Assembly (NCBI GenBank): GCA_944363785.1
Contig: CALVVF010000003.1
Span: 7,011 to 71,010, forward strand
From: an uncultured Bacilli bacterium
GTDB lineage: Bacteria > Bacillota_I > Bacilli_A > RF39 > UBA660
DNA: 64,000 nucleotides
Reading direction: 5' to 3'
A program made the translations under genes and the position numbers. Positions 3,303 to 60,580 of the stretch are shown here, piece after piece. The notes beneath the pieces were generated by a model. The model searched no databases and was not told the origin of the DNA. It was given only the letters and a program-made list of their open reading frames with translations. How positions within the stretch are numbered: the stretch's first letter is position 1; every line of letters begins with the position of its first letter.

Positions 3303-4283
3303 ATGGCTAGCAGTATTACCCATGCCTATTTTGCAATGGATGTTTATGATCGATTAAGTATTAAAAGTAAAGAACTATTAGTAGAACATAAAGAACTATT
3401 TAAAACCGCAGCTCAAAGTATGGATGTCTTATTTTTTTATAATCTTACCAATTTAAAAAAGGGTAAAAAGATGCGTGATTTTGGTTCTTATTTTCATCGT
3501 CATAAAAGTTATGACTTTTTTTCTACCTTAGTCAATTATATTAAATATAATCACTATCAATATCATCCCGAAGTTATTGCTTTTCTCTATGGTATGTTAA
3601 GTCACTATGTATTAGATTCAACGATACATCCTTATGTTATTTATCGAACGGGAGAATATAATAAACAGGATAAATCCACATATCGTTATAATCAATTACA
3701 TGGGGAAATGGAATCTTACTTTGACAACTATTTGGTTATGATTAGAGAGCATATGAGGCCATATAAGTTCAAGTGTCATGAATTCTGTTTCAATGTCAAT
3801 ACACTTAGTCCTGAACTTATCGAAGTAATGGATTTTACTTATCGAGAAGTATTTGGAATAGATAAATTTCATACTTATTATTTAAAAGCTATCTCTCAAA
3901 TGCGCTTTTTTTTCCGAGTATTTCGTTATGATCCAACGGGATGGAAACGATTAAGTTTTTCATTAATTGATTTAGTTTGTCCTAAAAGTTTACTTCGTAA
4001 AGCTCCCCTTTCTTATCATATGAAAATGGGAAACTATAAATGGTTTTTAAATCTAGAACATAAAAAATGGTATAATCCAACAGATAAGAGAACAAGTAGT
4101 AGTAAATCTTTATTAGAATTATATAGTGAAAGTTTAGCTAAAACAACAGAGATGATCAATGAGATCAATCAGTTCTTTTATTACGATAAGAAAATAAACT
4201 TGAAAAAAGTTTTATCTAATCGCAGTTATGTTACTGGAAAAGATTGTAGTAAAAATAAAGAATTAAAATACTTTGAGTTTTAA
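3303..4283 (+). CDS. putative zinc-dependent phospholipase C-family protein (His/Asp-rich metal-binding motifs)
   Basis: The ITHAYFAMD N-terminus plus the FGSYFHRH and HYVLDSTIHPYV motifs resemble the PLC/P1-nuclease-like metal-site pattern. This is a weak, memory-based assignment. Confidence 0.35.
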   Translation: MASSITHAYFAMDVYDRLSIKSKELLVEHKELFKTAAQSMDVLFFYNLTNLKKGKKMRDFGSYFHRHKSYDFFSTLVNYIKYNHYQYHPEVIAFLYGMLSHYVLDSTIHPYVIYRTGEYNKQDKSTYRYNQLHGEMESYFDNYLVMIREHMRPYKFKCHEFCFNVNTLSPELIEVMDFTYREVFGIDKFHTYYLKAISQMRFFFRVFRYDPTGWKRLSFSLIDLVCPKSLLRKAPLSYHMKMGNYKWFLNLEHKKWYNPTDKRTSSSKSLLELYSESLAKTTEMINEINQFFYYDKKINLKKVLSNRSYVTGKDCSKNKELKYFEF

Positions 4284-4353
4284 AGTTTTAATTCTTTTTT
4301 GTTTAATCTGTATGTTTTTTTTAAATCATCTAATACTAGTATTAGGTGATGAT

Positions 4354-5442
4354 ATGTTTTATAAATATTTAATGGTTAATGTAGAAGGTAAAGATGTTTT
4401 ATATTTATATTTAAATAATAAAGAAGAGTATGCCAGTGAATTTATTTTTCAACGTCATGAGAGGGAACCAGTTGAATTATACCGGAAGATTTCTCACTAT
4501 GTGGATAATATGGGAATTGATTTTTCTGGGAATATGATCTATGTCGTCGTTAATGATATTGTGGTAGTCTCTTTAGATTTAAGTAATTATGATAAAAGAA
4601 ATGATCGGTTAGTAGAGATCATTGGGGTTGAGAGTGGGTTAAGTAATAAGTTCATCGATTTAGATCGAAGTAGTGGTATCATCGAACGTTTAAAAATGGA
4701 TGATTATATTTTTGGAGTAGTCTCTGGGGAAATGCCCGCTGTATTTCATGATGAAACATTAAAAGCACAGGCTGTAATTGCTAGAACTTATGCTTCTAAA
4801 CGATTGAGTAAAGGTTTAAAAATCAAAGACTATAATGCAGTACAAATCTATCGTGATAAAAATTATTTAAAAGAAATTTGGGGAAATCATTATGATGAAT
4901 ATACTCAGAAAATAAAAAAGGCAATTAAAGATACTGAAAACGAGGTTCTTATGTTTGATGGAGATTATATTGATGTCTACTATCATTTATCTAGTAATGG
5001 TAAAACTGAGGATTCTAGTAATGTTTTGAAACTTGCTTATCCTTATTTAGTCAGCGTATCTAGTTTTTTTGATACTGATCGTAATTCAGTGAGTAGAAGA
5101 ATTGTACCTAACGACTATCTTAGTAAATTATTACAAGTTGAGATCACTAAAGATACTCCTGTTGAAATCTTAGTAAAAACAATTGGTCATCGAGTAAAAT
5201 ATATTAAATTTCAAGATAAAGTGTTTGATGGATTAATTTTAGCTAGAAGACTTGGATTAAACTCTAATGACTTTAGTATTAGTATTGAAGATGATTATAC
5301 AACTTTTACTACTCGTGGACATGGACATGGATTAGGTCTTAGTAAATATGGAGCTGAGGGAATGGCTAAAGCAGGCTACTCTTATCGGCAAATTTTAGAA
5401 CACTATTATCCAAATACCTATTTACAAAAAGAAGTGAAATAG
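4354..5442 (+). CDS. spoIID: SpoIID/LytB-domain protein (sporulation lytic transglycosylase-like)
   Basis: ETLKAQAVIARTYASKRL is the SpoIID/LytB signature. The track ORF starts at TTG 4273, inside the upstream gene. The ATG at 4354 has the RBS AGGTGATGAT, although the 4273 start would add a TM-like N-terminus. Confidence 0.7.
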   Translation: MFYKYLMVNVEGKDVLYLYLNNKEEYASEFIFQRHEREPVELYRKISHYVDNMGIDFSGNMIYVVVNDIVVVSLDLSNYDKRNDRLVEIIGVESGLSNKFIDLDRSSGIIERLKMDDYIFGVVSGEMPAVFHDETLKAQAVIARTYASKRLSKGLKIKDYNAVQIYRDKNYLKEIWGNHYDEYTQKIKKAIKDTENEVLMFDGDYIDVYYHLSSNGKTEDSSNVLKLAYPYLVSVSSFFDTDRNSVSRRIVPNDYLSKLLQVEITKDTPVEILVKTIGHRVKYIKFQDKVFDGLILARRLGLNSNDFSISIEDDYTTFTTRGHGHGLGLSKYGAEGMAKAGYSYRQILEHYYPNTYLQKEVK

Positions 5443-15059: not shown

Positions 15060-15719
15060 TTATCCTCCGTAAATTATCATAAATACAAGTACCGCAATAT
15101 GAAATAAAAGATAGTTCGTATCCCACTTTTCCCAAGTTGGTTTTTCAATATAAGTTCGTTTACTTGTATAATTATAGAATCTAAGTTGGTTAATTTCCAT
15201 TAGATCACGAATTTCATGTTTAGTCTTTGCATAAGCTTTCTTCAATGAAAAACGAATATAAAAGAAATCTTTTTCAATTGCATAATCTTCTCGTAAATTA
15301 TCAAGAAGTCGCATATTCTTTTTTAAATAACGGAAGAAATAGATGATATAAAGAATATGGTAAGTAATTTTTTTACTTTGAAATTTATATAAGGTTACTT
15401 CTAATATATACCGTAGTTCTGAAGAATCCGTTACTTTCTTAATTAACATGATATATTCCATAAAGATAATGAATTTAGTTATCCCCATAAACTGTGGATA
15501 AAAAGTAGTTAAAATAGAAAGAAGTACTCCAAATATCCCCACTTTGGAAATAAATTTAAATTCTAAAGATAAGAAGCATAAAACAACACTAATCAATACA
15601 ATTAAAGCTGAAGAATGTAGAAATAGTAAAGAGACAATAACTAAAAGTGATGAGATTAGTTTACTAATAATATTTACTTCATAAAGAAGAGAATCTTTCT
15701 TAAACATGTTTATACACAT
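15060..15719 (-). CDS. ecfT: putative ECF-transporter transmembrane component EcfT (divergent, short)
   Basis: It is a polytopic membrane protein in the conserved ecfA1-ecfA2-ecfT-truA position. It lacks the usual Ala-Arg-Gly coupling motifs. Confidence 0.45.
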   Translation of the reverse strand: MCINMFKKDSLLYEVNIISKLISSLLVIVSLLFLHSSALIVLISVVLCFLSLEFKFISKVGIFGVLLSILTTFYPQFMGITKFIIFMEYIMLIKKVTDSSELRYILEVTLYKFQSKKITYHILYIIYFFRYLKKNMRLLDNLREDYAIEKDFFYIRFSLKKAYAKTKHEIRDLMEINQLRFYNYTSKRTYIEKPTWEKWDTNYLLFHIAVLVFMIIYGG

Positions 15720-33620: not shown

Positions 33621-35120
33621 TTATTTAGAAAGCAAACTTTCTCCTGTCATCTCTTGAGGAATTTCTAAATTCATTATTTCTAGAATTGTTGGTGCGATAT
33701 CGCCAAGTTTTCCATCATGAGGAACATAATCAGGATTACAGATAATAAATGGCACTTTATTAGTCGTATGAGAAGTGATAATATTATCGTTTTCATCGAT
33801 CATAAGTTCACAGTTTCCGTGATCAGCTGTCACGATTAATAAGCCTCCAAGTTCTTGGATTTTCGCATAAATCCTTCCTAGATTCTCATCAACTGCTTCT
33901 ACTGCTTTAATGGCTGCATCTAAATTTCCTGTATGTCCTACCATATCACAGTTCGCAAAATTTAAAATAATCACATCGTAATTACCCATGATTTCTTCTA
34001 GCTTATCGCCAATTTCATAGGCAGACATTTCTGGTGCCATATCGTAGGTAGCTACATCTTTTCGAGGTACGATAATTTTATCTGTACCTGGTAAATCCAA
34101 TTCTTCACCACCGTCAAAGAAATAAGTAACGTGTGGATATTTGCTTGCTTCAGCGATACGTAATACCTTTTTTCCACATTTTGATAAATACATACCTAAA
34201 GAATTAGGTACTGTCACATGGGAATAGGCATTGGTACAAATAATTGATTTTTCTACTGGCATCATGGTTACTAGTTTAATATTCTGGAATTTTACAGTAT
34301 CGAACTCCTTGAAGTCTGGATTCGTAATTGCCGTAAATGTTTGCGTTGCACGATCTGGTCTAAAATTAGCGAAAATTAAACCATCATTTTCTTCTAAGTT
34401 ACTATTTTCATCTAGAATAGCCGGTTCAATAAATTCATCGAAGATCTTCTTTTGGTACTCTTCTTCGATATACGTATGATAATCTTTAATGACTGGAGCT
34501 TCTTTTTTAACAAGTAAATTATAGTAACGTTCAGTTAAATTCCACATTCTTTCTCTATCCATTGAATAGTAACGTCCAGAAACATCAGCGATACTTCCTA
34601 AATTTAGTTCATCAATTTTTACTTGTAATTGATCTAAGTATTGACAAGCAACATCAGGAAGTGTATCTCTACCATCCAAAAAAGCATGAACGTAAACTCG
34701 TTTTACTCCTTCTTTTTTAGCCATATCAAGTAAAGCTAAAATATGGTTGATATGAGAATGGATACCTCCATCGCTTAATAGTCCAAAAATGTGTAGTTTG
34801 GAATCATTTTCATTGACATGAGCCATTACCTTTTTCAATTCTTCATTGTCAAAGAATTTTCCTTCTCTGATATCTTTAGAGATCAATTCAAGTGGTTGAT
34901 AGACAATTCTACCCCCACCAATATTTAAATGTCCTACCTCTGAATTTCCCATCTGTCCAGCTGGTAGCCCTACTTGTTCTCCACTTGCCTCTAACTTGCT
35001 GTGGGGATATGTGTTCCATAGATAATCAAAAGTTGGTTTACTAGCTAGTTTGGTAGCATTTCCCTTAGTTTCTTCTCTTAAGCCAAAACCATCAATAATG
35101 GTTAATAATATTGGTTTCAT
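33621..35120 (-). CDS. gpmI: 2,3-bisphosphoglycerate-independent phosphoglycerate mutase
   Basis: The protein is 499 aa; the TIIDGFG..NSEVGHLN Mn-site motifs are present. Confidence 0.9.
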   Translation of the reverse strand: MKPILLTIIDGFGLREETKGNATKLASKPTFDYLWNTYPHSKLEASGEQVGLPAGQMGNSEVGHLNIGGGRIVYQPLELISKDIREGKFFDNEELKKVMAHVNENDSKLHIFGLLSDGGIHSHINHILALLDMAKKEGVKRVYVHAFLDGRDTLPDVACQYLDQLQVKIDELNLGSIADVSGRYYSMDRERMWNLTERYYNLLVKKEAPVIKDYHTYIEEEYQKKIFDEFIEPAILDENSNLEENDGLIFANFRPDRATQTFTAITNPDFKEFDTVKFQNIKLVTMMPVEKSIICTNAYSHVTVPNSLGMYLSKCGKKVLRIAEASKYPHVTYFFDGGEELDLPGTDKIIVPRKDVATYDMAPEMSAYEIGDKLEEIMGNYDVIILNFANCDMVGHTGNLDAAIKAVEAVDENLGRIYAKIQELGGLLIVTADHGNCELMIDENDNIITSHTTNKVPFIICNPDYVPHDGKLGDIAPTILEIMNLEIPQEMTGESLLSK

Positions 35121-37593: not shown

Positions 37594-37630
37594 AAGAAAA
37601 GGTGTAGCTTTATAGGTTACACCTTTTATT
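37594..37630. terminator. bidirectional hairpin between GNAT (+) and spo0A (-)
   Basis: AAAGGTGTA-N11-TACACCTTT. Confidence 0.5.
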
Positions 37631-38399
37631 TACAGTAATCTTTTTGAAATTCCAATCGTAGTTTGTCAGCGACAGTAACAATGAATTCGGAATTGGTTGG
37701 TTTGGCTTTATCAATATCGACACTATGGCCAAATATCTCTTCCATTAAATCCCAATCCCCACGATTCCAACTCACCTCGATCGCATGACGAATGGCTCTT
37801 TCGACCCGAGAAACGGTCGTATTAAATTTTTTCGCAATATCTGGATATAATTCCTTGGTAATGCCACCAATTACTTCTGGTCGCTCATAGAGAATAGAAA
37901 TTCCTTCTCTGATATATTGATATCCCTTTATATGGGATGGTATTCCTAATTCATGTAATATTTTAGTAATCGAAATCTGTAAGTTATTATGGTAAATATC
38001 GATTGAAGCATTGCTGTAGGTTTTACTATCGGTACAATCTTCTATTCTTCGTTCTAGATCAGATAATTCAAACGGCTTTAAGATGAAATAATTAATTCCA
38101 TACTCAGATACTCTTCTAATCATCTCTTGTGCATTATAAGATGTTAGTACAATTACCTTCTTATCGATCTGTTCTTTTCTCATACTCTCTAGGATAGAGA
38201 GTCCATCTTTTTTCGGCATAATCAAGTCTAAGATGATGACATCATACTCGTTTTGCCTTGTTTTAATTAATTCTAAACCTCTTTCTCCATCATTTGCTTC
38301 TAATACTAATTCGATATTAGCGTGATCTTTAAAGTACTCCTTAATCATGCTTACTAGGTCGACATTATCATCGATCATCAGTACTCTGACTTTATTCAT
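37626..38399 (-). CDS. spo0A: sporulation master regulator Spo0A (receiver plus Spo0A_C)
   Basis: The receiver has [12 protein letters not shown]. The C-terminus [58 protein letters not shown] is diagnostic of Spo0A. Confidence 0.9.
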
Positions 38400-38556: not shown

Positions 38557-38700
38557 GTCCCAGTCGTTGCCTCCTGGGCTTTCTGCTTCATAGATAAAGT
38601 AACCTTTATTCTCCACAGACTTAACATCCGATAGTCGCTACCGTAGTTTTTTGTTCTTATTTGTTTTCTATTTTTTCTATATGAATTCTTTCATATACAT
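38557..38700 (-). ncRNA. candidate TnpB-associated omega-RNA (reRNA) scaffold derived from the IS right end
   Basis: This is a GC-rich segment in an AT-rich genome. It has hairpins, including GCCCAGGAGGCAACGACTGGGAC, and sits at and just beyond the tnpB 3' end, ahead of a terminator. Confidence 0.3.
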
Positions 38701-39816
38701 CTTTATTCCTTCAAATAATATATTCATACTAGCATTAATATCTCTATCATGATAACTTCCACATTCTGGACATAGCCAATTTCTAACTGATAAATCTTTT
38801 ACTTTCTCATTTTTATACCCGCATCTACTACATTCCTGACTACTCGGATAATAACTATCTATCTGAATGTATCGTTTTCCATAATACTTAGCTTTATATT
38901 CTAATATACGACATATCTCAGATAAACTGACATCAGTTAGATATTTAGAAAACTTCTTTTCTTCGATCATCTCTTTTGCCTTTAATGTTTCACTTACCAC
39001 AATATCATTTTCTAATACTAGTTTTTTCGTTATTTGATGAATAAAATGTTTTCTCGCATTCTTTAACTTCTGAAATAAAATGGCTAACTTTCTCTTCGTT
39101 TTATAGTAATTACTACTTCCTTTTTCTCTCCTGGATAATTCTCTTTGTTTCCTTTTTATTCTTTTTTCATATTTTTCTATGATTTTCTCATTCTTTACCT
39201 TTTCACCATCACTTGTAATCACAACATCTTTTATTCCTAAATCAATTCCTACTATAGTTTTAGGAATAATTTTTGGCACGATATGATTTACCTCTACTAA
39301 TACACTAGCATAGTACTTACCACTTGAATTCTCGCTAATCGTCGCATTAATTATTCTTCCAGGTAAAGTTTCTAAATTCCTATATCCTCTAATCTTTACT
39401 TCTTTTAATTTAGGAAGAATAATCACTTTTCTTTTTAAATCTACTCTAATATTTTCATACCTTTTTTCTTTATAATTATTCGTAATATAATTCGTTCGAT
39501 AACTTCTTTTAGAACTATACTTTCCTTTAAATTTTGGATAATTTGTTTGTTTATGAAAATAACGTTTAAATGCATCATCTAAATCAAATAAACTACATCT
39601 TAAACTACAAGAGTCCACTTCCTTTAAAAATGGATATTCTGAATATAAATTAGGTAAATCTTTAATCGTATCAAAACAAGTTGTATTTTCTTTTTTTCTT
39701 TTTTCAAGATAGTAATTATAAACTAGTCTTGTACAGCCAAATGTTTTTTGTATCATAATGATTTGTTTATCATTTGGATAAAGACGAAATTGGTAACTTT
39801 TATACATCATACTCAT
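38677..39816 (-). CDS. tnpB: IS605-family TnpB (OrfB) RNA-guided endonuclease, lone
   Basis: The N-terminal OrfB helix-turn-helix region is present (SYQFRLYPNDKQ). RuvC-I is GIDLGIKDV. The zinc ribbon is CSRCGYKN..CPECGSYHDRD. RuvC-III is DINASMNI. There is no adjacent tnpA. Confidence 0.85.
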   Translation of the reverse strand: MSMMYKSYQFRLYPNDKQIIMIQKTFGCTRLVYNYYLEKRKKENTTCFDTIKDLPNLYSEYPFLKEVDSCSLRCSLFDLDDAFKRYFHKQTNYPKFKGKYSSKRSYRTNYITNNYKEKRYENIRVDLKRKVIILPKLKEVKIRGYRNLETLPGRIINATISENSSGKYYASVLVEVNHIVPKIIPKTIVGIDLGIKDVVITSDGEKVKNEKIIEKYEKRIKRKQRELSRREKGSSNYYKTKRKLAILFQKLKNARKHFIHQITKKLVLENDIVVSETLKAKEMIEEKKFSKYLTDVSLSEICRILEYKAKYYGKRYIQIDSYYPSSQECSRCGYKNEKVKDLSVRNWLCPECGSYHDRDINASMNILFEGIKMYMKEFI

Positions 39817-39987: not shown

Positions 39988-40149
39988 TTAGCGATTCTTG
40001 GATAAAGCTTGAGAAGCCATAGCAACGATTAATAGTATTACAACCATAATCATAATCCATAAAAGTGGACTGTCATAATGACTCTCAAAAAAGTTTTCCA
40101 ATTCTTTAAAGCTTCGATCTAGCCAATCAAATAGTGCATTCCCTATCAT
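39988..40149 (-). CDS. small tail-anchored membrane protein (53 aa), translationally coupled to tpiA
   Basis: Manual translation gives MIGNALFDWLDRSFKELENFFESHYDSPLLWIMIMVVILLIVAMASQALSKNR. Its ATG overlaps the tpiA TGA as ATGA, and the GGAGGAAGAAG in the tpiA 3' end serves as the RBS. Confidence 0.5.
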   Translation of the reverse strand: MIGNALFDWLDRSFKELENFFESHYDSPLLWIMIMVVILLIVAMASQALSKNR

Positions 40150-40862
40150 ACTTCTTCCTCCATTTTCTCTATTATTACTCGCAATTTTTCTATATCCAGG
40201 CTTGTACCTCCAATTAGATAACCATCTATATTAGGCACTTGATTTAATTCATCGATATTATTTATAGATACACTACCACCGTACAAGACTCGGCAAAAAA
40301 TTTGATATTTTTTATGGACATAATCTTTAATCATTTGAGTAATCGTCGTAATTTCTTCTGTTGTGGGGATTTTTCCTGTTCCAATTGCCCAAATAGGTTC
40401 ATAAGCAATGATTACTTGATCTAAGTTTACTTGATTAGTGAAAGCACTATCAATCTCATTCATGAGAATGTTTTCACGGTCGTTAATTTCTTCTTCTTTT
40501 TCTCCTATACATAAAACGGGCACCATGGCATTTTCTAAAATTAATTTTACTTTCTGATTAATCATCTCTTCTGTTTCATTTAGAATATTTCTTCGTTCGG
40601 AATGCCCGACAATAACATATTTAACATTCAGTGATTTTAATTGCTGGATGGCAATTTCTCCCGTTAAGGCACCCATATTGCGATCGGCTACATTTTGGGC
40701 TCCTAGGGAGTAATTAACTTGATTTTGAAAATAGGGAAGATAGATACTACTAGGACAAAATACTAGTTCATTACTTGATTTTAACGTACTTATTTGGTCT
40801 ACATAGTTTTCTATTTCTTTCTTAGTTAAATTCATTTTGTGATTACTTATTATCCACTTCAT
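40146..40862 (-). CDS. tpiA: triosephosphate isomerase
   Basis: The motifs GHSERR and AYEPIWAIGTGK are present. The ATG at 40862 has the RBS AGGTGA; the track start was GTG 40871. Confidence 0.9.
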   Translation of the reverse strand: MKWIISNHKMNLTKKEIENYVDQISTLKSSNELVFCPSSIYLPYFQNQVNYSLGAQNVADRNMGALTGEIAIQQLKSLNVKYVIVGHSERRNILNETEEMINQKVKLILENAMVPVLCIGEKEEEINDRENILMNEIDSAFTNQVNLDQVIIAYEPIWAIGTGKIPTTEEITTITQMIKDYVHKKYQIFCRVLYGGSVSINNIDELNQVPNIDGYLIGGTSLDIEKLRVIIEKMEEEV

Positions 40863-42087
40863 CTTTATCACCTTTAATTTTATCTACTATTTTTCCGATT
40901 ACACCTAAACGATTACTCTTATGTTTTATCGCATATGTATATACATCTAATACAGACTCAGCAAAATATTTTGAACTGTAGCGTTCAGAATTAATTCTCG
41001 CTTGTTTAGAGAGTTTACCTACTTGTTTTTTATCTTTATATAATTCTTTAATAATTTCTTTACATTCTTTTTTGGTCTTAAAAATTCTACCATTTAGTCC
41101 ATCAATTACCACATTAGCAAAGCTTTCATCGTCAATACAGATTGGTGTTACTTCTGAGGCCATTGCTTCAATTACTGTTAATCCTTGTGTTTCTGAATGA
41201 GAGGCAGTTAAAAAAATGTTTGCTAAATGATAATAGTATGGCATTTCTTCCCATTTTGCCTTTCCCGTCATGATAACATGTTCTGACAAGTTTTCCTTTT
41301 GGATATATTCCTGATATTCTTCCATATCTGGTCCATCTCCAACGATCAATAATTTTAGTTTTGGACAGCTAGGAATTAAATCTTTTACTACTTCCATTAG
41401 AAAGACGATATTTTTTTCTTGGGCTAAACGTCCTACGAAAATAGCTACAAAATCATCATCTTTTAGGCCTTGGTTTTTTCTCAATTTTGCTAGTTTACTG
41501 GCATCTATGTTTTCTTGATAAAACCTCTCTAACTCTATTCCCGTTGGGATAATATGAATATTCTTATCTACTTTGTATTTTTCTTTGAATAGATCATAAG
41601 TTTTCTTAGTAGGAACAATTAACTCACTAGCGGTTTTATCGCAATAAAATAGTGTTAAATATTCGACAATCTTTTTACTAGACTTATTGAAATATCCTTT
41701 AGTCACATAATGAATATAATCTTCATACATCGTATGATAAGTATGAACTAAAGGAATATCTAATTGAAAAGCCAAAAGTCTAGCAAATGTACCTATCGCA
41801 AATTCAGTTTGAGAATGAATAATATCTAAGTTCCAATTCTTAATAATATTCACAGCTTTAATCGGATAGATAGCTGTCAACCTAGAATCATAGATTCCTG
41901 TTGGGATACCGGGTATACGTAAGACATGTTCCTTCTCATCATAATCATAGTGAAAGCTTTCCAAGTTAGCTGTGACTACATATACTGTATGTCCCAATTT
42001 TTCCAAGGCCTCTTTTAACATTACTTCACTTGTGACTAAACCACTAATATAAGGGGTATAAGTTTCTGTAAAAATTCCTATTCTCAT
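40843..42087 (-). CDS. GT4-family glycosyltransferase (glycolipid/diacylglycerol glycosyltransferase-like)
   Basis: It has the GT-B fold with an EX7E-type C-terminal region (SHSETQGLTVIEAMA). It overlaps the upstream gene by 4 bp. Confidence 0.7.
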   Translation of the reverse strand: MRIGIFTETYTPYISGLVTSEVMLKEALEKLGHTVYVVTANLESFHYDYDEKEHVLRIPGIPTGIYDSRLTAIYPIKAVNIIKNWNLDIIHSQTEFAIGTFARLLAFQLDIPLVHTYHTMYEDYIHYVTKGYFNKSSKKIVEYLTLFYCDKTASELIVPTKKTYDLFKEKYKVDKNIHIIPTGIELERFYQENIDASKLAKLRKNQGLKDDDFVAIFVGRLAQEKNIVFLMEVVKDLIPSCPKLKLLIVGDGPDMEEYQEYIQKENLSEHVIMTGKAKWEEMPYYYHLANIFLTASHSETQGLTVIEAMASEVTPICIDDESFANVVIDGLNGRIFKTKKECKEIIKELYKDKKQVGKLSKQARINSERYSSKYFAESVLDVYTYAIKHKSNRLGVIGKIVDKIKGDKDEVDNK

Positions 42088-43088
42088 TTTCTATTCCTTC
42101 CTTTAATATTTAAGACGATCGCACCAATAATCATCAATAAATAATATGATATCGTTCGCCAAATTAGAAGAGAGGCTTTTAAAATACTACCTCCAATAAA
42201 GCATCCGAAGAATTTCAAATAACCATATTCAATACCACCACTCGCACCTGGTATCGGTACAAATGAACCAATGATCAATATATATGCTGATGAGACGATA
42301 GCGGTAATTGGAGATACTCCTGTTCCTCCTAGGGCAATAATGACAAAATAAGGCATTACATAAGTTAGTGTTAAGTAAATAATATTATAGAAAAAGGCTT
42401 CTAAACAAAGAAGTTTATTCTTTTTCAAATACGTTGTTCCTTCGTGGAAATCGTCGATTCTTTCTCTCCATGCTTCTTGGGTTTTTTCAGGATTTTTTAT
42501 GAGTTTCGTTTTCCCTAAAAAAGCAATAATCTTCTTAATCACTAGATGATTGAATTTACTACTAAAGCTAATTATGATCAAGCCTAACATCACTAGTGTA
42601 TTAATCATGAATCCTAAGACTATTAATTCTTTTAATACAGGAATATTTTTAAATAAGTGAAAATTAGCATTGATCGTAATGGCAAATAATCCATAGATTA
42701 CTAAAGCGGCTTGATAGATAATAAAGTTCTGCATGATGATGTTAGTCGCTTTGGTTAGACGGAAACCATCTTTTTTTAACATGTAAATTTGCATTGGTTG
42801 ACCACCTGTTGAAAAGGGGGTAATTCCATTAAAGAACTTCGTTACAAACTGCATGCGTAAGGCTTGACTAAAACGATAGTCTTTTGTATAGCCATTGACG
42901 ATTTTCTTATAAGCCAATGTTTCAAATGCGATAGCTAGTAGTTGACAGAGAAGTGCTAAGAAAAGAAAGAAGAAGTTAGCACCAAGAAGTGCGGCAATAA
43001 TCTCGTTGAAATCATCTTTTAACACTAAAAAGAGAATTAATATCGTGACACCAATTAATATTAAACTGTTTTTCTTTAAGCTTTTCAT
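42084..43088 (-). CDS. flippase-like / lysylphosphatidylglycerol-synthase TM-domain family membrane protein
   Basis: It is a polytopic membrane protein with the FSTGGQP motif typical of the LPG_synthase_TM (UPF0104) family. It is paired with the GT4 gene. Confidence 0.55.
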   Translation of the reverse strand: MKSLKKNSLILIGVTILILFLVLKDDFNEIIAALLGANFFFLFLALLCQLLAIAFETLAYKKIVNGYTKDYRFSQALRMQFVTKFFNGITPFSTGGQPMQIYMLKKDGFRLTKATNIIMQNFIIYQAALVIYGLFAITINANFHLFKNIPVLKELIVLGFMINTLVMLGLIIISFSSKFNHLVIKKIIAFLGKTKLIKNPEKTQEAWRERIDDFHEGTTYLKKNKLLCLEAFFYNIIYLTLTYVMPYFVIIALGGTGVSPITAIVSSAYILIIGSFVPIPGASGGIEYGYLKFFGCFIGGSILKASLLIWRTISYYLLMIIGAIVLNIKGRNRK

Positions 43089-43173
43089 AGTACACTCCTC
43101 ATTTTCTTTTGCTTTATCTTTTAGTTAGTCTAAACGAGATCTACTTGTGAGATTTATCCCTAAAGAAAAGCTT

Positions 43174-44352
43174 TTATTTTTCGGCTATTACTTCAAGGCC
43201 TGGCAAACTCTTTCCTTCTAGATATTCTAAAGTTGCTCCTCCTCCAGTAGATGCATGACTGACTTTATCTTTATATCCTAATTGACTAGCTGCAGCAACG
43301 ATATCACCGCCACCTAAAATGGTATCGATATGATTATCCGTTAAGAATTTTAATACCTGTTCTGTTCCAATACTGTATTTAGGATTTTCATATACACCTA
43401 ATGGTCCGTTCCAGACAACGGTTTTCGCTGTTTTTAGTATATCACAAAATTCTTGAACTGTCTCAGGACCGATATCTAGCCCTTTTTCAGTAGCAGATAG
43501 GTCATTGATTTTAACGATGCGGCTATTGTTGTCTTCTAGGGATGTCGCTGCATTAACATCGACAGGAAGAACGATTTTTCCAGGATAGTTAGTTAACATC
43601 TGTTTACAAAAATCAATGTTTTCTTCATCTAAAATACTACTTCCAATCGAGTATCCTGCTGCTTTCAAAAAGGTAAAGGACATTCCCCCACCAATTATAA
43701 TTTTGTCGGCTTTTTCGATCAAGTTTTTGATAACACCAATTTTATCAGATACTTTACTACCACCTAAAATTACAACATAAGGACGTTGTGGTTCATCGAG
43801 ACGACTTAATGCTTTTAACTCTCTTTCCACCAAAAAGCCAATCGCATTTGGTAATTTACTACCAATTCCTACGTTCGATGCATGACTACGATGAATAGTT
43901 CCAAAGGCATCATTAATGAATATATCTCCTAAGCTTGCCCAATAAGTAGCTAATTCCTCATCATTTGTACTTTCTTTCTTACCATCTAAGTCTTCAAATC
44001 TAGTATTTTCGATTAATAAAATTTCTCCTTCTTTCATTTCATTAATCGTTTTTATTAATATATCACTTCGTGTCTTATTAATAAACATGACCGGTCGTCT
44101 TAATAATTCACTTAATCTTTCTGCAACAGGGGCAAGGGTATTTTTTTGTTTATCACTTTCCTCTTTGATACGACCAAGATGAGACATTAGAATAACTTTG
44201 GCTCTCTGATCAATCGCATAACGAATCGTATCTAAGCTTTCTACAATTCTCGTATCATCAGCAATTTCTCCATTCTTCATCGGAACATTAAAATCGCAAC
44301 GAATGATTACTCTTTTACCACTAAGATCTAAATCGGTAATACTTTTTTTCAT
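43174..44352 (-). CDS. pgk: phosphoglycerate kinase
   Basis: The protein is 392 aa; RCDFNVP and GGGAS..LEGK hinge motifs are present. Confidence 0.95.
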   Translation of the reverse strand: MKKSITDLDLSGKRVIIRCDFNVPMKNGEIADDTRIVESLDTIRYAIDQRAKVILMSHLGRIKEESDKQKNTLAPVAERLSELLRRPVMFINKTRSDILIKTINEMKEGEILLIENTRFEDLDGKKESTNDEELATYWASLGDIFINDAFGTIHRSHASNVGIGSKLPNAIGFLVERELKALSRLDEPQRPYVVILGGSKVSDKIGVIKNLIEKADKIIIGGGMSFTFLKAAGYSIGSSILDEENIDFCKQMLTNYPGKIVLPVDVNAATSLEDNNSRIVKINDLSATEKGLDIGPETVQEFCDILKTAKTVVWNGPLGVYENPKYSIGTEQVLKFLTDNHIDTILGGGDIVAAASQLGYKDKVSHASTGGGATLEYLEGKSLPGLEVIAEK

Positions 44353-44443: not shown

Positions 44444-45460
44444 CTATATGGTTTCCATAACTTCCATCAATTTTTTGGCTGTTCTTACCATTTGACTAGT
44501 ATAAGAGTTTTCATTGTCATACCAAGCTACTATTTGTACTAATGTTTTACCATCATTCAAGCTAATGACTTTTGTTTGAGTAGCATCAAAAATAGAGCCA
44601 TGAGTTTCTCCTATGATATCACTAGAAACGATTTCTTCTTCGGTATAACCATAAGATTCGCTTTGTACTGATTTCATCATTTCGTTGATCTCTTCTTTAG
44701 TTACTTCTTTATCAACAACAACATCTAAGATTGTCAAGCTTCCATCTGGTACTGGTACACGTTGAGCACCACCAATTAATTTTCCTGATAGTTCAGGGAT
44801 GACTAAACCAATTGCTTTAGCTGCTCCGGTTGAATTAGGTACAATATTGATCGCACCAGCACGAGCTCTTCTTAAGTCCCCTTTTCTATGTGGTCCATCT
44901 AAGATCATTTGATCTCCTGTATAGGCATGAACAGTCGTCATGATACCTGAGATAATTGGGGCATAGTTATTTAGCGCATATGCCATTGGTGCAAGGCAGT
45001 TTGTCGTACAAGATGCTGCCGAAATAATATGATCATCTTTAGTAATGATATTTTCATTTACTCCATAAACGACTGTAGGTACATCATTACCAGCTGGGGC
45101 AGAAATAATTACTTTCTTTGCTCCCGCTCTTAAATGAGCTTCTGATTTTTCTTTTGAAGTAAAGAACCCAGTACACTCCAATACAACATCAACTTCTAAC
45201 TCTTTCCATGGTAATTCTTCTGGATTAGAAATAGCATAAACAGGAATCTCTTTACCTGCTACAATTATACTTTTTTCAGTTGCTTGAACGGTATCTGCTA
45301 ATTCATATTTCTTTTGAGCAGAATCGTACTTCAATAAGTGAGCTAACATTTTAGGATTTGTTAGATCGTTAATTGCGACAATCTCGCAGTCACTTTGGCC
45401 AAACATTTGACGAAAAGCAAGACGACCTATGCGTCCAAAACCATTAATAGCTACTTTCAT
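44444..45460 (-). CDS. gap: glyceraldehyde-3-phosphate dehydrogenase
   Basis: INGFGRIGR is present, and the catalytic site is [10 protein letters not shown]. Confidence 0.95.
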
Positions 45461-45483
45461 TTTATCATCCTCTTTCTATCTTC

Positions 45484-45512
45484 ACTATATAGTTTTTACC
45501 TATTATTGTCAA
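45484..45512 (-). promoter_or_regulatory. sigma-A promoter TTGACA-N17-TATAGT for gap-pgk operon
   Basis: The hexamers were read on the minus strand about 25 bp upstream of the RBS. Confidence 0.6.
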
Positions 45513-45547
45513 TATATTCAAAAGAAACTAGTCGTCATTTGTCACTA

Positions 45548-45628
45548 TTTTCCACAGAAATTGAGGATAATTTTTATTTTTTCCACAGATACTCGTTCGT
45601 ATTTACTAAAATTTTATTTTTATCCACA
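45548..45628. promoter_or_regulatory. three direct DnaA-box-like repeats (TTTTCCACA, TTTTCCACA, TTATCCACA) upstream of the gap promoter
   Basis: The boxes are at 45548-45556, 45579-45587 and 45620-45628, 31 and 41 bp apart. The third matches the consensus TTATNCACA exactly. Confidence 0.5.
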
Positions 45629-45644
45629 GTTTTTGGGGATAACT

Positions 45645-59737: not shown

Positions 59738-60580
59738 TTAGCGATTAAATTGCTCTTTGAAATTACAATGCTTACAAAGATCTTCTCCTACTTTTCGATT
59801 TTCAAAACCTTTACGCATTGTTTCTATTTTGGGATTTTCTAAAATACGTTCAATATTCATGGTTAAAATATTACCAAGATTAATGTTTCCTTCACCATCT
59901 AGACAACAGGGAACTACTGTTCCATCTGATAATACACCAATATGGTCTTTCAATGCATGACAGTATCCTTTACTTTCATAATAACTATTGTCTACATCTG
60001 GCCAGATAAATTGATTGGCTTTATTAATATAAATATTACTATCTATTTGAATATTAGTATCCGTATATATTCTTTCCACAGTTCCTATAGATAGATGATA
60101 ATATTCCATAATTTTATTCACAGTTCTTGTGGATTTTGCATCAAAACTGAAGTCTTTTAATGTCCATAGTCGATAAACAACAGGCATATGAGGAGATAAT
60201 AGTTCTACAGCTTCAAATATATCCTTTAAATATTCTTCTTTATGATTTTCAGAGTGAAGAGATATATTAAGCTGACGAACTATACCACTTTCTAATAAGA
60301 TTTTAGCTTTTTCCTTTAATAAGACTCCATTCGTTGTGATATTAACCTGTTTATGATATTTTTTACAGATTGCTAAAATTTTGTCTAATTTAGGATGTAG
60401 GAGCGGTTCTCCTTTAATATGCAAATATACATAATCTGTATAGGAATCTAATTTTTTGATAATTTTTTCAAATTCCCCAACACTTAAGCTTCTCTTTGGG
60501 CGATTACTGATAGAACAAAAACTACAAGATAGATTACAAATATTGGAAATTTCAATATATACCCTTTTGAATTTTTTCAT
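59738..60580 (-). CDS. radical SAM enzyme with C-terminal SPASM/twitch-like Cys cluster
   Basis: The N-terminal CNLSCSFC is a CxxxCxxC motif. The C-terminus has GVLSDGTVVPCCLDGEGNINLGNIL..CKHC. Confidence 0.7.
   Translation of the reverse strand: MKKFKRVYIEISNICNLSCSFCSISNRPKRSLSVGEFEKIIKKLDSYTDYVYLHIKGEPLLHPKLDKILAICKKYHKQVNITTNGVLLKEKAKILLESGIVRQLNISLHSENHKEEYLKDIFEAVELLSPHMPVVYRLWTLKDFSFDAKSTRTVNKIMEYYHLSIGTVERIYTDTNIQIDSNIYINKANQFIWPDVDNSYYESKGYCHALKDHIGVLSDGTVVPCCLDGEGNINLGNILTMNIERILENPKIETMRKGFENRKVGEDLCKHCNFKEQFNR

Follow-up and report, generated by a model that had tools for sequence, protein, structure and literature searches.

DnaA-box clusters that lie outside the replication origin have, to our knowledge, been studied in very few organisms. 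The datA locus of Escherichia coli works together with IHF and stimulates ATP hydrolysis. In Bacillus subtilis, six non-origin clusters bind DnaA, influence neighboring genes, and restrain initiation (PMC3245932). A further type of site, DARS, contains two boxes (I and II) in opposite orientation and 5 bp apart, which are bound by a head-to-head DnaA dimer, and a third box that is also essential (PMC6868365). According to a 2026 review, B. subtilis possesses neither datA nor DARS, and the regulators of the interconversion of DnaA-ADP and DnaA-ATP are unknown in this species (PMC13220808).

Here, we describe an intergenic cluster of 5 DnaA-box-like 9-mers within 95 bp, bounded by a nucleoside-kinase gene and the gap promoter in a stretch of 64,000 nucleotides from an uncultured Bacilli bacterium (contig CALVVF010000003.1; the whole stretch is referred to as the window). 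One protein encoded in the window shares 93% identity with a protein of a metagenome-assembled genome named "Candidatus Scybalousia intestinigallinarum"; for the name "Candidatus Scybalousia", NCBI now uses Candidatus Alloscybalousia (Bacilli incertae sedis). Judging from box sequence and conservation, the cluster probably represents a conserved group of DnaA boxes away from the replication origin, with predicted binding of DnaA.

Features of the kinase-gap region and of the additional box pair, with positions counted from the first nucleotide of the window.
Feature	Position	Strand	Remarks
Third head-to-head pair, TTATCCCCA-TAAAC-TGTGGATAA	15479-15501	+	zero mismatches to the pair pattern
pgk	43174-44352		next gene after gap
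gap (glyceraldehyde-3-phosphate dehydrogenase)	44444-45460	-	first gene downstream of the cluster
Sigma-A-type gap promoter, TTGACA-N17-TATAGT	45484-45512	-	11/12 matches
GTGACAA element, preceded by an A-run	45539-45545	-	85-86 nt before the gap ATG
Proximal box, TTTTCCACA	45548-45556	+	TTWTCCACA match; invariant in 4 genomes
Proximal partner box, TTATCCTCA	45562-45570	-	1 mismatch; head-to-head with the proximal box
Middle box, TTTTCCACA	45579-45587	+	1 mismatch, at the tolerated W position; unpartnered in the window
Distal strong box, TTATCCACA	45620-45628	+	perfect consensus; TGTGGATAA along gap transcription
Distal partner box, TTATCCCCA	45634-45642	-	1 mismatch; head-to-head with the distal strong box
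"Nucleoside kinase" gene, PRK/uridine-kinase family, 552 aa	45645-47303	-	upstream of the cluster

The initial annotation of this region had described 3 direct repeats with start-to-start spacings of 31 and 41 bp, the last of which is a perfect DnaA-box consensus. Remeasurement returned the same 9-mers on the + strand, the same spacings, and the perfect match, and the 3 strong boxes indeed share one orientation. As a description of the cluster, however, this is incomplete, because 5 boxes exist, including 2 inverted partners on the - strand. Read in the direction of gap transcription, the kinase stop codon is followed by 2 nt, the distal pair TTATCCCCA-AAAAC-TGTGGATAA, 32 nt, the middle box TGTGGAAAA, 8 nt, the proximal pair TTATCCTCA-ATTTC-TGTGGAAAA, 2 nt, the GTGACAA element, and a further 26 nt up to the -35 hexamer. 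Both pairs thus have a 5-bp spacer: TTATCCCCA-N5-TGTGGATAA (45642-45620; spacer 45629-45633) and TTATCCTCA-N5-TGTGGAAAA (45570-45548; spacer 45557-45561). The partner boxes mismatch at position 7, within the CACA core, where C or T replaces A; this position matters for the E. coli DnaA box.

In the direction of gap transcription, all 3 strong boxes read TGTGGAWAA and are separated by approximately 4 and then approximately 3 helical turns. Each of the observed spacings (31, 39-41, and 43 bp) falls close to a multiple of 10.5 bp, but few of these values are independent, and the statistical support for helical phasing of the boxes is weak. The + strand has a GC skew of -0.137, and the - strand is therefore probably the leading strand; if so, the strong boxes read TGTGGAWAA along fork movement as well as along transcription. 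When the flanks of the 23-mers were compared between pair sites, nothing common was found beyond the 23-mer itself, and a repeat or mobile-element origin of the pairs was discarded, since the flanks share nothing else.

The cluster is flanked by the PRK-family kinase gene and gap, with clpP, whiA, and pgk as wider neighbors, while dnaA, dnaN, and rpmH were not found among the flanking genes checked, which places the cluster outside oriC. In the window and the genomes closest to it, the cluster starts 2-6 nt past the kinase stop codon; in the relatives L003 and L209, the distance is approximately 10 nt. With the -35 and -10 hexamers at 45512-45484, the -35 hexamer is 36-116 bp downstream of the boxes, in agreement with the initial annotation. 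The latter had also stated that no cggR is present, and the gene upstream of gap is indeed a member of the PRK/uridine-kinase family rather than a SorC-type regulator; furthermore, a Pfam scan of 20 window ORFs revealed no CggR-like protein. The CggR operator, which in B. subtilis consists of tandem CGGGAC...TGTC repeats in the promoter region, was rejected as an explanation as well, the upstream gene being a PRK-family kinase and CGGGAC being absent from 45461-45644.

As RNA, the 2 palindromes fold at -6.1 kcal/mol (distal, directly past the kinase stop codon) and -3.3 kcal/mol. Neither hairpin has an adjacent U-tract, a terminator scan of the intergenic region found none, and an Rfam search gave no match at the cluster. 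An intrinsic terminator or other RNA element was therefore rejected, given the weak hairpins without U-tract and the absence of the distal one in 3 close relatives (L002, L203, and L204). In the relatives with 74% kinase identity, a strong terminator-like hairpin follows the box pair (L205 5740-5775; the 101-nt stretch L205 5690-5790 folds at -25 kcal/mol), so that the pair there sits between the kinase stop codon and the kinase terminator. As the window is without such a terminator, transcription may possibly read through from the kinase gene into gap.

Two genes interrupt the glycolytic operon between pgk and tpi (40146-40871), within the region 40146-44352. One encodes a membrane protein of the LPG_synthase_TM family (42084-43088); the other, for a group-1 glycosyltransferase (40843-42087), overlaps the start of tpi. 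Just downstream of tpi, a TnpB/IS605 OrfB-type gene with a Cas12f1-like TNB domain (38677-39816) adjoins spo0A (37626-38399). SpoIID is encoded at 4273-5442, and the gene neighborhood at spo0A together with SpoIID suggests a spore-forming lineage.

The initial annotation had proposed to compare the density of the 9-mers here with that throughout the genome, on the reasoning that an equal density elsewhere would speak against a genuine cluster. TTWTCCACA occurs 6 times in the window compared to 1.71 expected occurrences, and 3 of the 6 fall within 81 bp. Allowing 1 mismatch, 40 boxes were found versus 21 expected, counted against a DnaA-box consensus that is assumed for this lineage, whose oriC box may differ from TTATCCACA. 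The 5 boxes within 95 bp at the kinase-gap junction, each with no more than 1 mismatch to TTATCCACA, form the densest cluster of the entire 64 kb and a clustering well above background, as in B. subtilis DnaA-box clusters (DBCs). In 60 shuffles, the maximum cluster comprised 2 boxes in 37 cases, 1 box in 22, and 3 boxes in a single case. The cluster thus stands far above both the window background and the shuffles, and the comparison left the DnaA-box reading intact: the cluster is not a by-product of AT-richness, and chance is excluded by the shuffles.

The pair arrangement is enriched as well. The pattern TTATCCNCA-N5-TGTGGAWAA yielded 8 strand matches in the window with up to 3 mismatches (0.53 expected), and all 3 convergent pairs (45642-45620, 45570-45548, and 15479-15501) have a spacer of exactly 5 bp. 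In 80 other Firmicutes, whose gap loci add up to 887 kb, only one N5 pair was found, which is the orthologue in L002. Within the window, a weak head-to-head pair with 3 mismatches (TTATTCACA-GTTCT-TGTGGATTT, 60114-60136) lies inside a radical-SAM/SPASM gene (59738-60580) and may be due to chance. Moreover, 2 divergent 1-mismatch boxes (TGTGGATAT ... TTTTCCACA) are located 29 bp apart at 34132-34178, inside an ORF of 499 aa (33621-35120).

We then compared the locus with that of relatives. The closest of these are L002 (93% identical in gap) as well as L203 and L204 (87% and 85% identical in the kinase), which share the layout of kinase gene, box cluster, and a nearly identical gap promoter. 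In an alignment of the 4 intergenic regions, the 3 TGTGGAWAA boxes are identical at 27/27 positions, as read by eye from the sequences, since MAFFT split the middle box by a gap and gave a raw value of 27/39 box columns; by comparison, 33 of the 82 non-box columns upstream of the proximal box (40%) are invariant. The partner boxes differ in this respect. The proximal partner is kept at N5 in all 3 relatives, where it reads TTATCCCCA, whereas the distal partner is absent from all 3 and present in the window only; the middle box, which has no partner in the window, has one at 4-bp spacing in the 3 relatives. The distal-to-middle distance is 41 bp in L203, L204, L003, and L209 and 39 bp in L002.

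Relatives with a 74% identical kinase (L205-208 and L209-212) still carry a pair at the kinase stop codon. This is a single pair, ATATCAACA-GTTTT-TGTGGATAA, directly past the stop codon in L205-208, and ATATCCACA-N5-TGTGGAAAA with an additional TGTGGATAT 41 bp further on in L209-212. In these genomes and in L003, 1-3 ORFs separate the boxes from gap, which lies 0.5-1.7 kb further on and has its own promoter, at which no boxes were found. Since the boxes remain at the kinase stop codon even where ORFs part them from gap, they evidently track the 3' end of the kinase gene and not gap. No boxes were detected in L004 (78% identity in gap) or in the Erysipelotrichaceae loci, and the feature is therefore restricted to a narrow clade. 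The ORFs between kinase and gap include a family of small proteins (L003 5071-5394 and 5494-5907; L205 5906-6292; L210 6852-7256) of approximately 105-137 aa, without Pfam match and with a common N-terminal motif ...ISYVK(I/V)ENEIHC.... This family is absent from the window; in L003, each of the 2 paralogues has its own DnaA-box pair ahead of it.

A gap-specific operator was thus rejected for the boxes, which do not follow gap in relatives. The heptamer GTGACAA, in contrast, occurs as part of AAAAAAGTGACAA in all clade members that were examined (L002, L003, L004, L203-L206, L209, and L210), at position -85/-86 relative to the gap ATG and whether or not boxes are nearby, and lies 26 nt upstream of the -35 hexamer in the window. 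Because its conserved offset tracks gap, unlike the DnaA boxes, AAAAAAGTGACAA is a better candidate than these for an operator specific to gap or for an upstream promoter element.

The third head-to-head pair of the window lies within a coding sequence, that of an ecfT-like membrane protein (15060-15719, - strand). At this position, homologues with 93, 70, 55, and 48% protein identity encode F-[YF]-[PT]-Q-[FW]-[LM]-[WG]-I-[TP], and their DNA reads TTATCCACA-ATTTC-TGGGGATAA, TTTTCCACA-ATGGT-TGTGGATAC, TTATCC(A/G)CA-GTTTT-TGTGGATAC, and TTTTACACA-GTTTT-TGTGGATAA. In every homologue sequenced, the Leu codon of the pair is TTG or CTG and the Ile codon is ATA, even though xTG and ATA account for only 9.7% of Leu and 16.6% of Ile codons in the window genes, while adjoining codons vary freely. 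The retention of rare codons next to freely varying ones points to a constraint that acts on the DNA sequence of the pair itself.

The same module was also found well beyond this clade. A metagenome scan with TTATCCNCA-N5-TGTGGAWAA returned at least 120 loci (L082-L201) on contigs of 26-70% GC, of which 80 sequences (L082-L161) are listed. Among the matches listed, both halves are perfect DnaA boxes in most of the 80 pairs, and 72/80 have A as the seventh base of the left half, although the pattern allowed any base there. These pairs are evidently not due to chance, as an AT-rich 18-mer could not be expected to arise in this way across contigs of 26-70% GC. Those listed are mostly intergenic, with rpmE, priA, xseA, exbB/tolQ-like, ung, parA-like, and dnaA genes as frequent neighbors; by clustering, dnaA adjoins 4 of the 80 listed pairs, and most lie beside other genes. 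In the low-GC contigs L084 and L197, TTTTCCACA-N5-TGTGGATAA is located approximately 70-80 bp before the dnaA start, in a box cluster between divergent rpmH and dnaA.

Among the matches listed, 79 of 103 metagenome pairs have a third box (up to 3 mismatches) 3 bp outside the pair in head-to-tail orientation, compared to 1 at a control offset. The complete three-box layout of the DARS core (box I, N5, box II, N3, box III) is common among these matches, for example in L166 (2557), L195 (4787), and L105 (2287). E. coli DARS1 (bioD-uvrB) reads TTATCCACT-ATTCC-TGTGGATAA-CCA-TGTGTATTA, and in rppH-mutH, the expected location of DARS2, the sequence is TTATTCACC-TTTTC-TGTGGATAG-AGT-TGTGAAGAA, with 2 mismatches each at the box III offset. 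At the 3 window pairs, this offset shows 5-7 mismatches, which is background level. The frequency of three-box cores in contigs of 26-70% GC suggests that the DARS-core architecture is much more widespread than the enterobacterial loci that define it, and this side result may matter more than the cluster itself.

As the boxes are conserved in relatives, a genuine non-origin DnaA cluster is the most likely reading of the locus. This possibility, one of two raised in the initial annotation, is favored by the fit to the consensus at all 9 positions, the invariance of the boxes, and a pair layout of the DARS and rpmH-dnaA type; speaking against it are the small size (5 boxes) and the narrow clade distribution of the cluster, as well as the partner boxes, which deviate at position 7 and are not conserved at the distal and middle sites. 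The other possibility, the operator of a glycolytic regulator, is disfavored, because the gap promoter of L003, L205-208, and L209-212 is free of boxes, which are instead found at the kinase stop codon in these genomes. We infer binding of DnaA, its cooperativity, and any effect on transcription or replication from the sequence. In the proposed mechanism, domain IV of DnaA would bind the strong boxes, and the 5-bp head-to-head geometry would bring a second DnaA cooperatively onto the weak partner, as at boxes I/II of E. coli DARS. DnaA would thereby form a stable complex with the DNA immediately past the kinase gene, centered approximately 82, 106, and 154 bp ahead of the presumed transcription start of gap (~45477, estimated from the -10 hexamer). 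In its conserved role, the cluster most likely serves as a DnaA-binding chromosomal site of the B. subtilis DBC type, which would hold or titrate DnaA, and a secondary local effect on the downstream promoter, that of gap-pgk here and of a small ORF in relatives, is possible.

A dimeric transcription factor other than DnaA could instead read the 23-bp palindrome and control the gap operon in place of CggR. While the 2 imperfect palindromes with their fixed 5-bp spacer, the position upstream of a strong gap promoter, and the lack of cggR beside gap would suit such a regulator, the invariant part consists of three same-orientation 9-mers, and the partner halves vary among close relatives (N5, N4, or none). 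Moreover, the sites of relatives remain at the kinase stop codon with the gap promoter box-free, one copy sits within an unrelated coding sequence, the same 23-mer, at which binding of DnaA is proven in E. coli, is also found beside dnaA, and GTGACAA is the better gap-linked element, all of which makes a non-DnaA regulator unlikely. Other motifs of known regulators or chromosome organizers (cre, Rex, NrdR, CRP/FNR, WalR, AbrB, parS, NBS, dif, and others) are not known to fit the palindrome in orientation and spacing and were rejected. The Spo0A box, TGTCGAA, resembles TGTGGAA, and 0A and DnaA boxes overlap at B. subtilis oriC. With spo0A encoded in the window and TGTGGAA only one position off this heptamer, the sites might be read as Spo0A boxes; however, the mismatch affects the C at the center of the 0A box, 2 mismatches are present in the distal box (TGTGGAT), and conservation spans all 9 DnaA-box positions, beyond the 7-mer. 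Since the boxes read TGTGGAA or TGTGGAT and none matches TGTCGAA, Spo0A was rejected as a highly improbable candidate.

We also consider it very unlikely that the sites are non-functional, be it as a remnant of the regulatory region of a lost small ORF, as weak terminator hairpins, or as chance matches in AT-rich DNA. Small ORFs do lie between boxes and gap in L003, L205, and L209, and the distal palindrome folds directly past the kinase stop codon, but the full identity of the box positions against 40% of flanking columns holds for 4 genomes without the ORF, the weak hairpins are without U-tract and the distal one is lacking in the close relatives, and the shuffles exclude chance. Finally, the head-to-head pairs could be the Firmicutes analogue of DARS, promoting the release of ADP from DnaA and thereby reactivating the initiator. 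Geometry and orientation are the same as for DARS boxes I/II, and the regulators of DnaA-ADP/ATP interconversion in B. subtilis are left unknown by the 2026 review (PMC13220808). Nevertheless, box III, essential in E. coli, is missing at all 3 window pairs, and pair-only modules occur in ordinary dnaA-promoter clusters too, so that we regard this function as decidedly unlikely. Firmicutes DnaA is said to exchange its nucleotide quickly, which further weakens a DARS-like role.

If DnaA modulates gap-pgk, this would directly connect the replication initiator with central carbon metabolism at the molecular level. Such an effect would be noteworthy because depletion of gapA lowers oriC-dependent initiation in B. 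subtilis (PMC4207641). More speculatively, and with little probability in our view, this Bacilli lineage with its dispersed 5-bp head-to-head pairs at fixed positions might possess a box-III-less counterpart of DARS and, at the same time, have DnaA tied to gap-pgk transcription. If true, the pairs would have evolved or been retained where DARS and datA are considered absent, they would modify either the activity of DnaA or its oligomeric state, and they would explain in physical terms the genetic links reported in B. subtilis between glycolysis and the initiation of replication. In any case, the cluster shows a phylogenetic footprint in an uncultured clade of gut Bacilli close to Candidatus Alloscybalousia. 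It uses a head-to-head module with 5-bp spacing that is otherwise known from the DARS core of E. coli, and it abuts the promoter of a glycolytic operon in a lineage where gap has no CggR gene beside it.

In comparison with known systems, the cluster resembles E. coli datA as a non-origin DnaA-box cluster of the kind that modulates initiator availability, but the box layout of datA is different. With the DARS core, the window pairs share the weak box, the 5-bp spacer, and the opposite strong box, and thus the arrangement of boxes I/II. They differ in that box III, which lies 3 bp beyond box II in head-to-tail orientation, is missing at all 3 of them; full membership was therefore rejected, and the pairs are not DARS, because box III is absent. 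DARS2 additionally comprises sites for IHF and Fis. The rpmH-dnaA (oriC1) clusters of L084 and L197 have the pair-only N5 module together with further same-orientation boxes, as the window cluster does, but are located at the origin and the dnaA promoter, whereas the window cluster is not next to dnaA, dnaN, or rpmH. Compared to the DBCs of B. subtilis, the window cluster adjoins a nucleoside kinase gene and gap, has 5 boxes only, and is built on head-to-head 5-bp pairs plus phased same-orientation boxes; what it shares with them is an arrangement of intergenic, consensus-like boxes away from dnaA, in Bacilli, beside promoters of ordinary genes.
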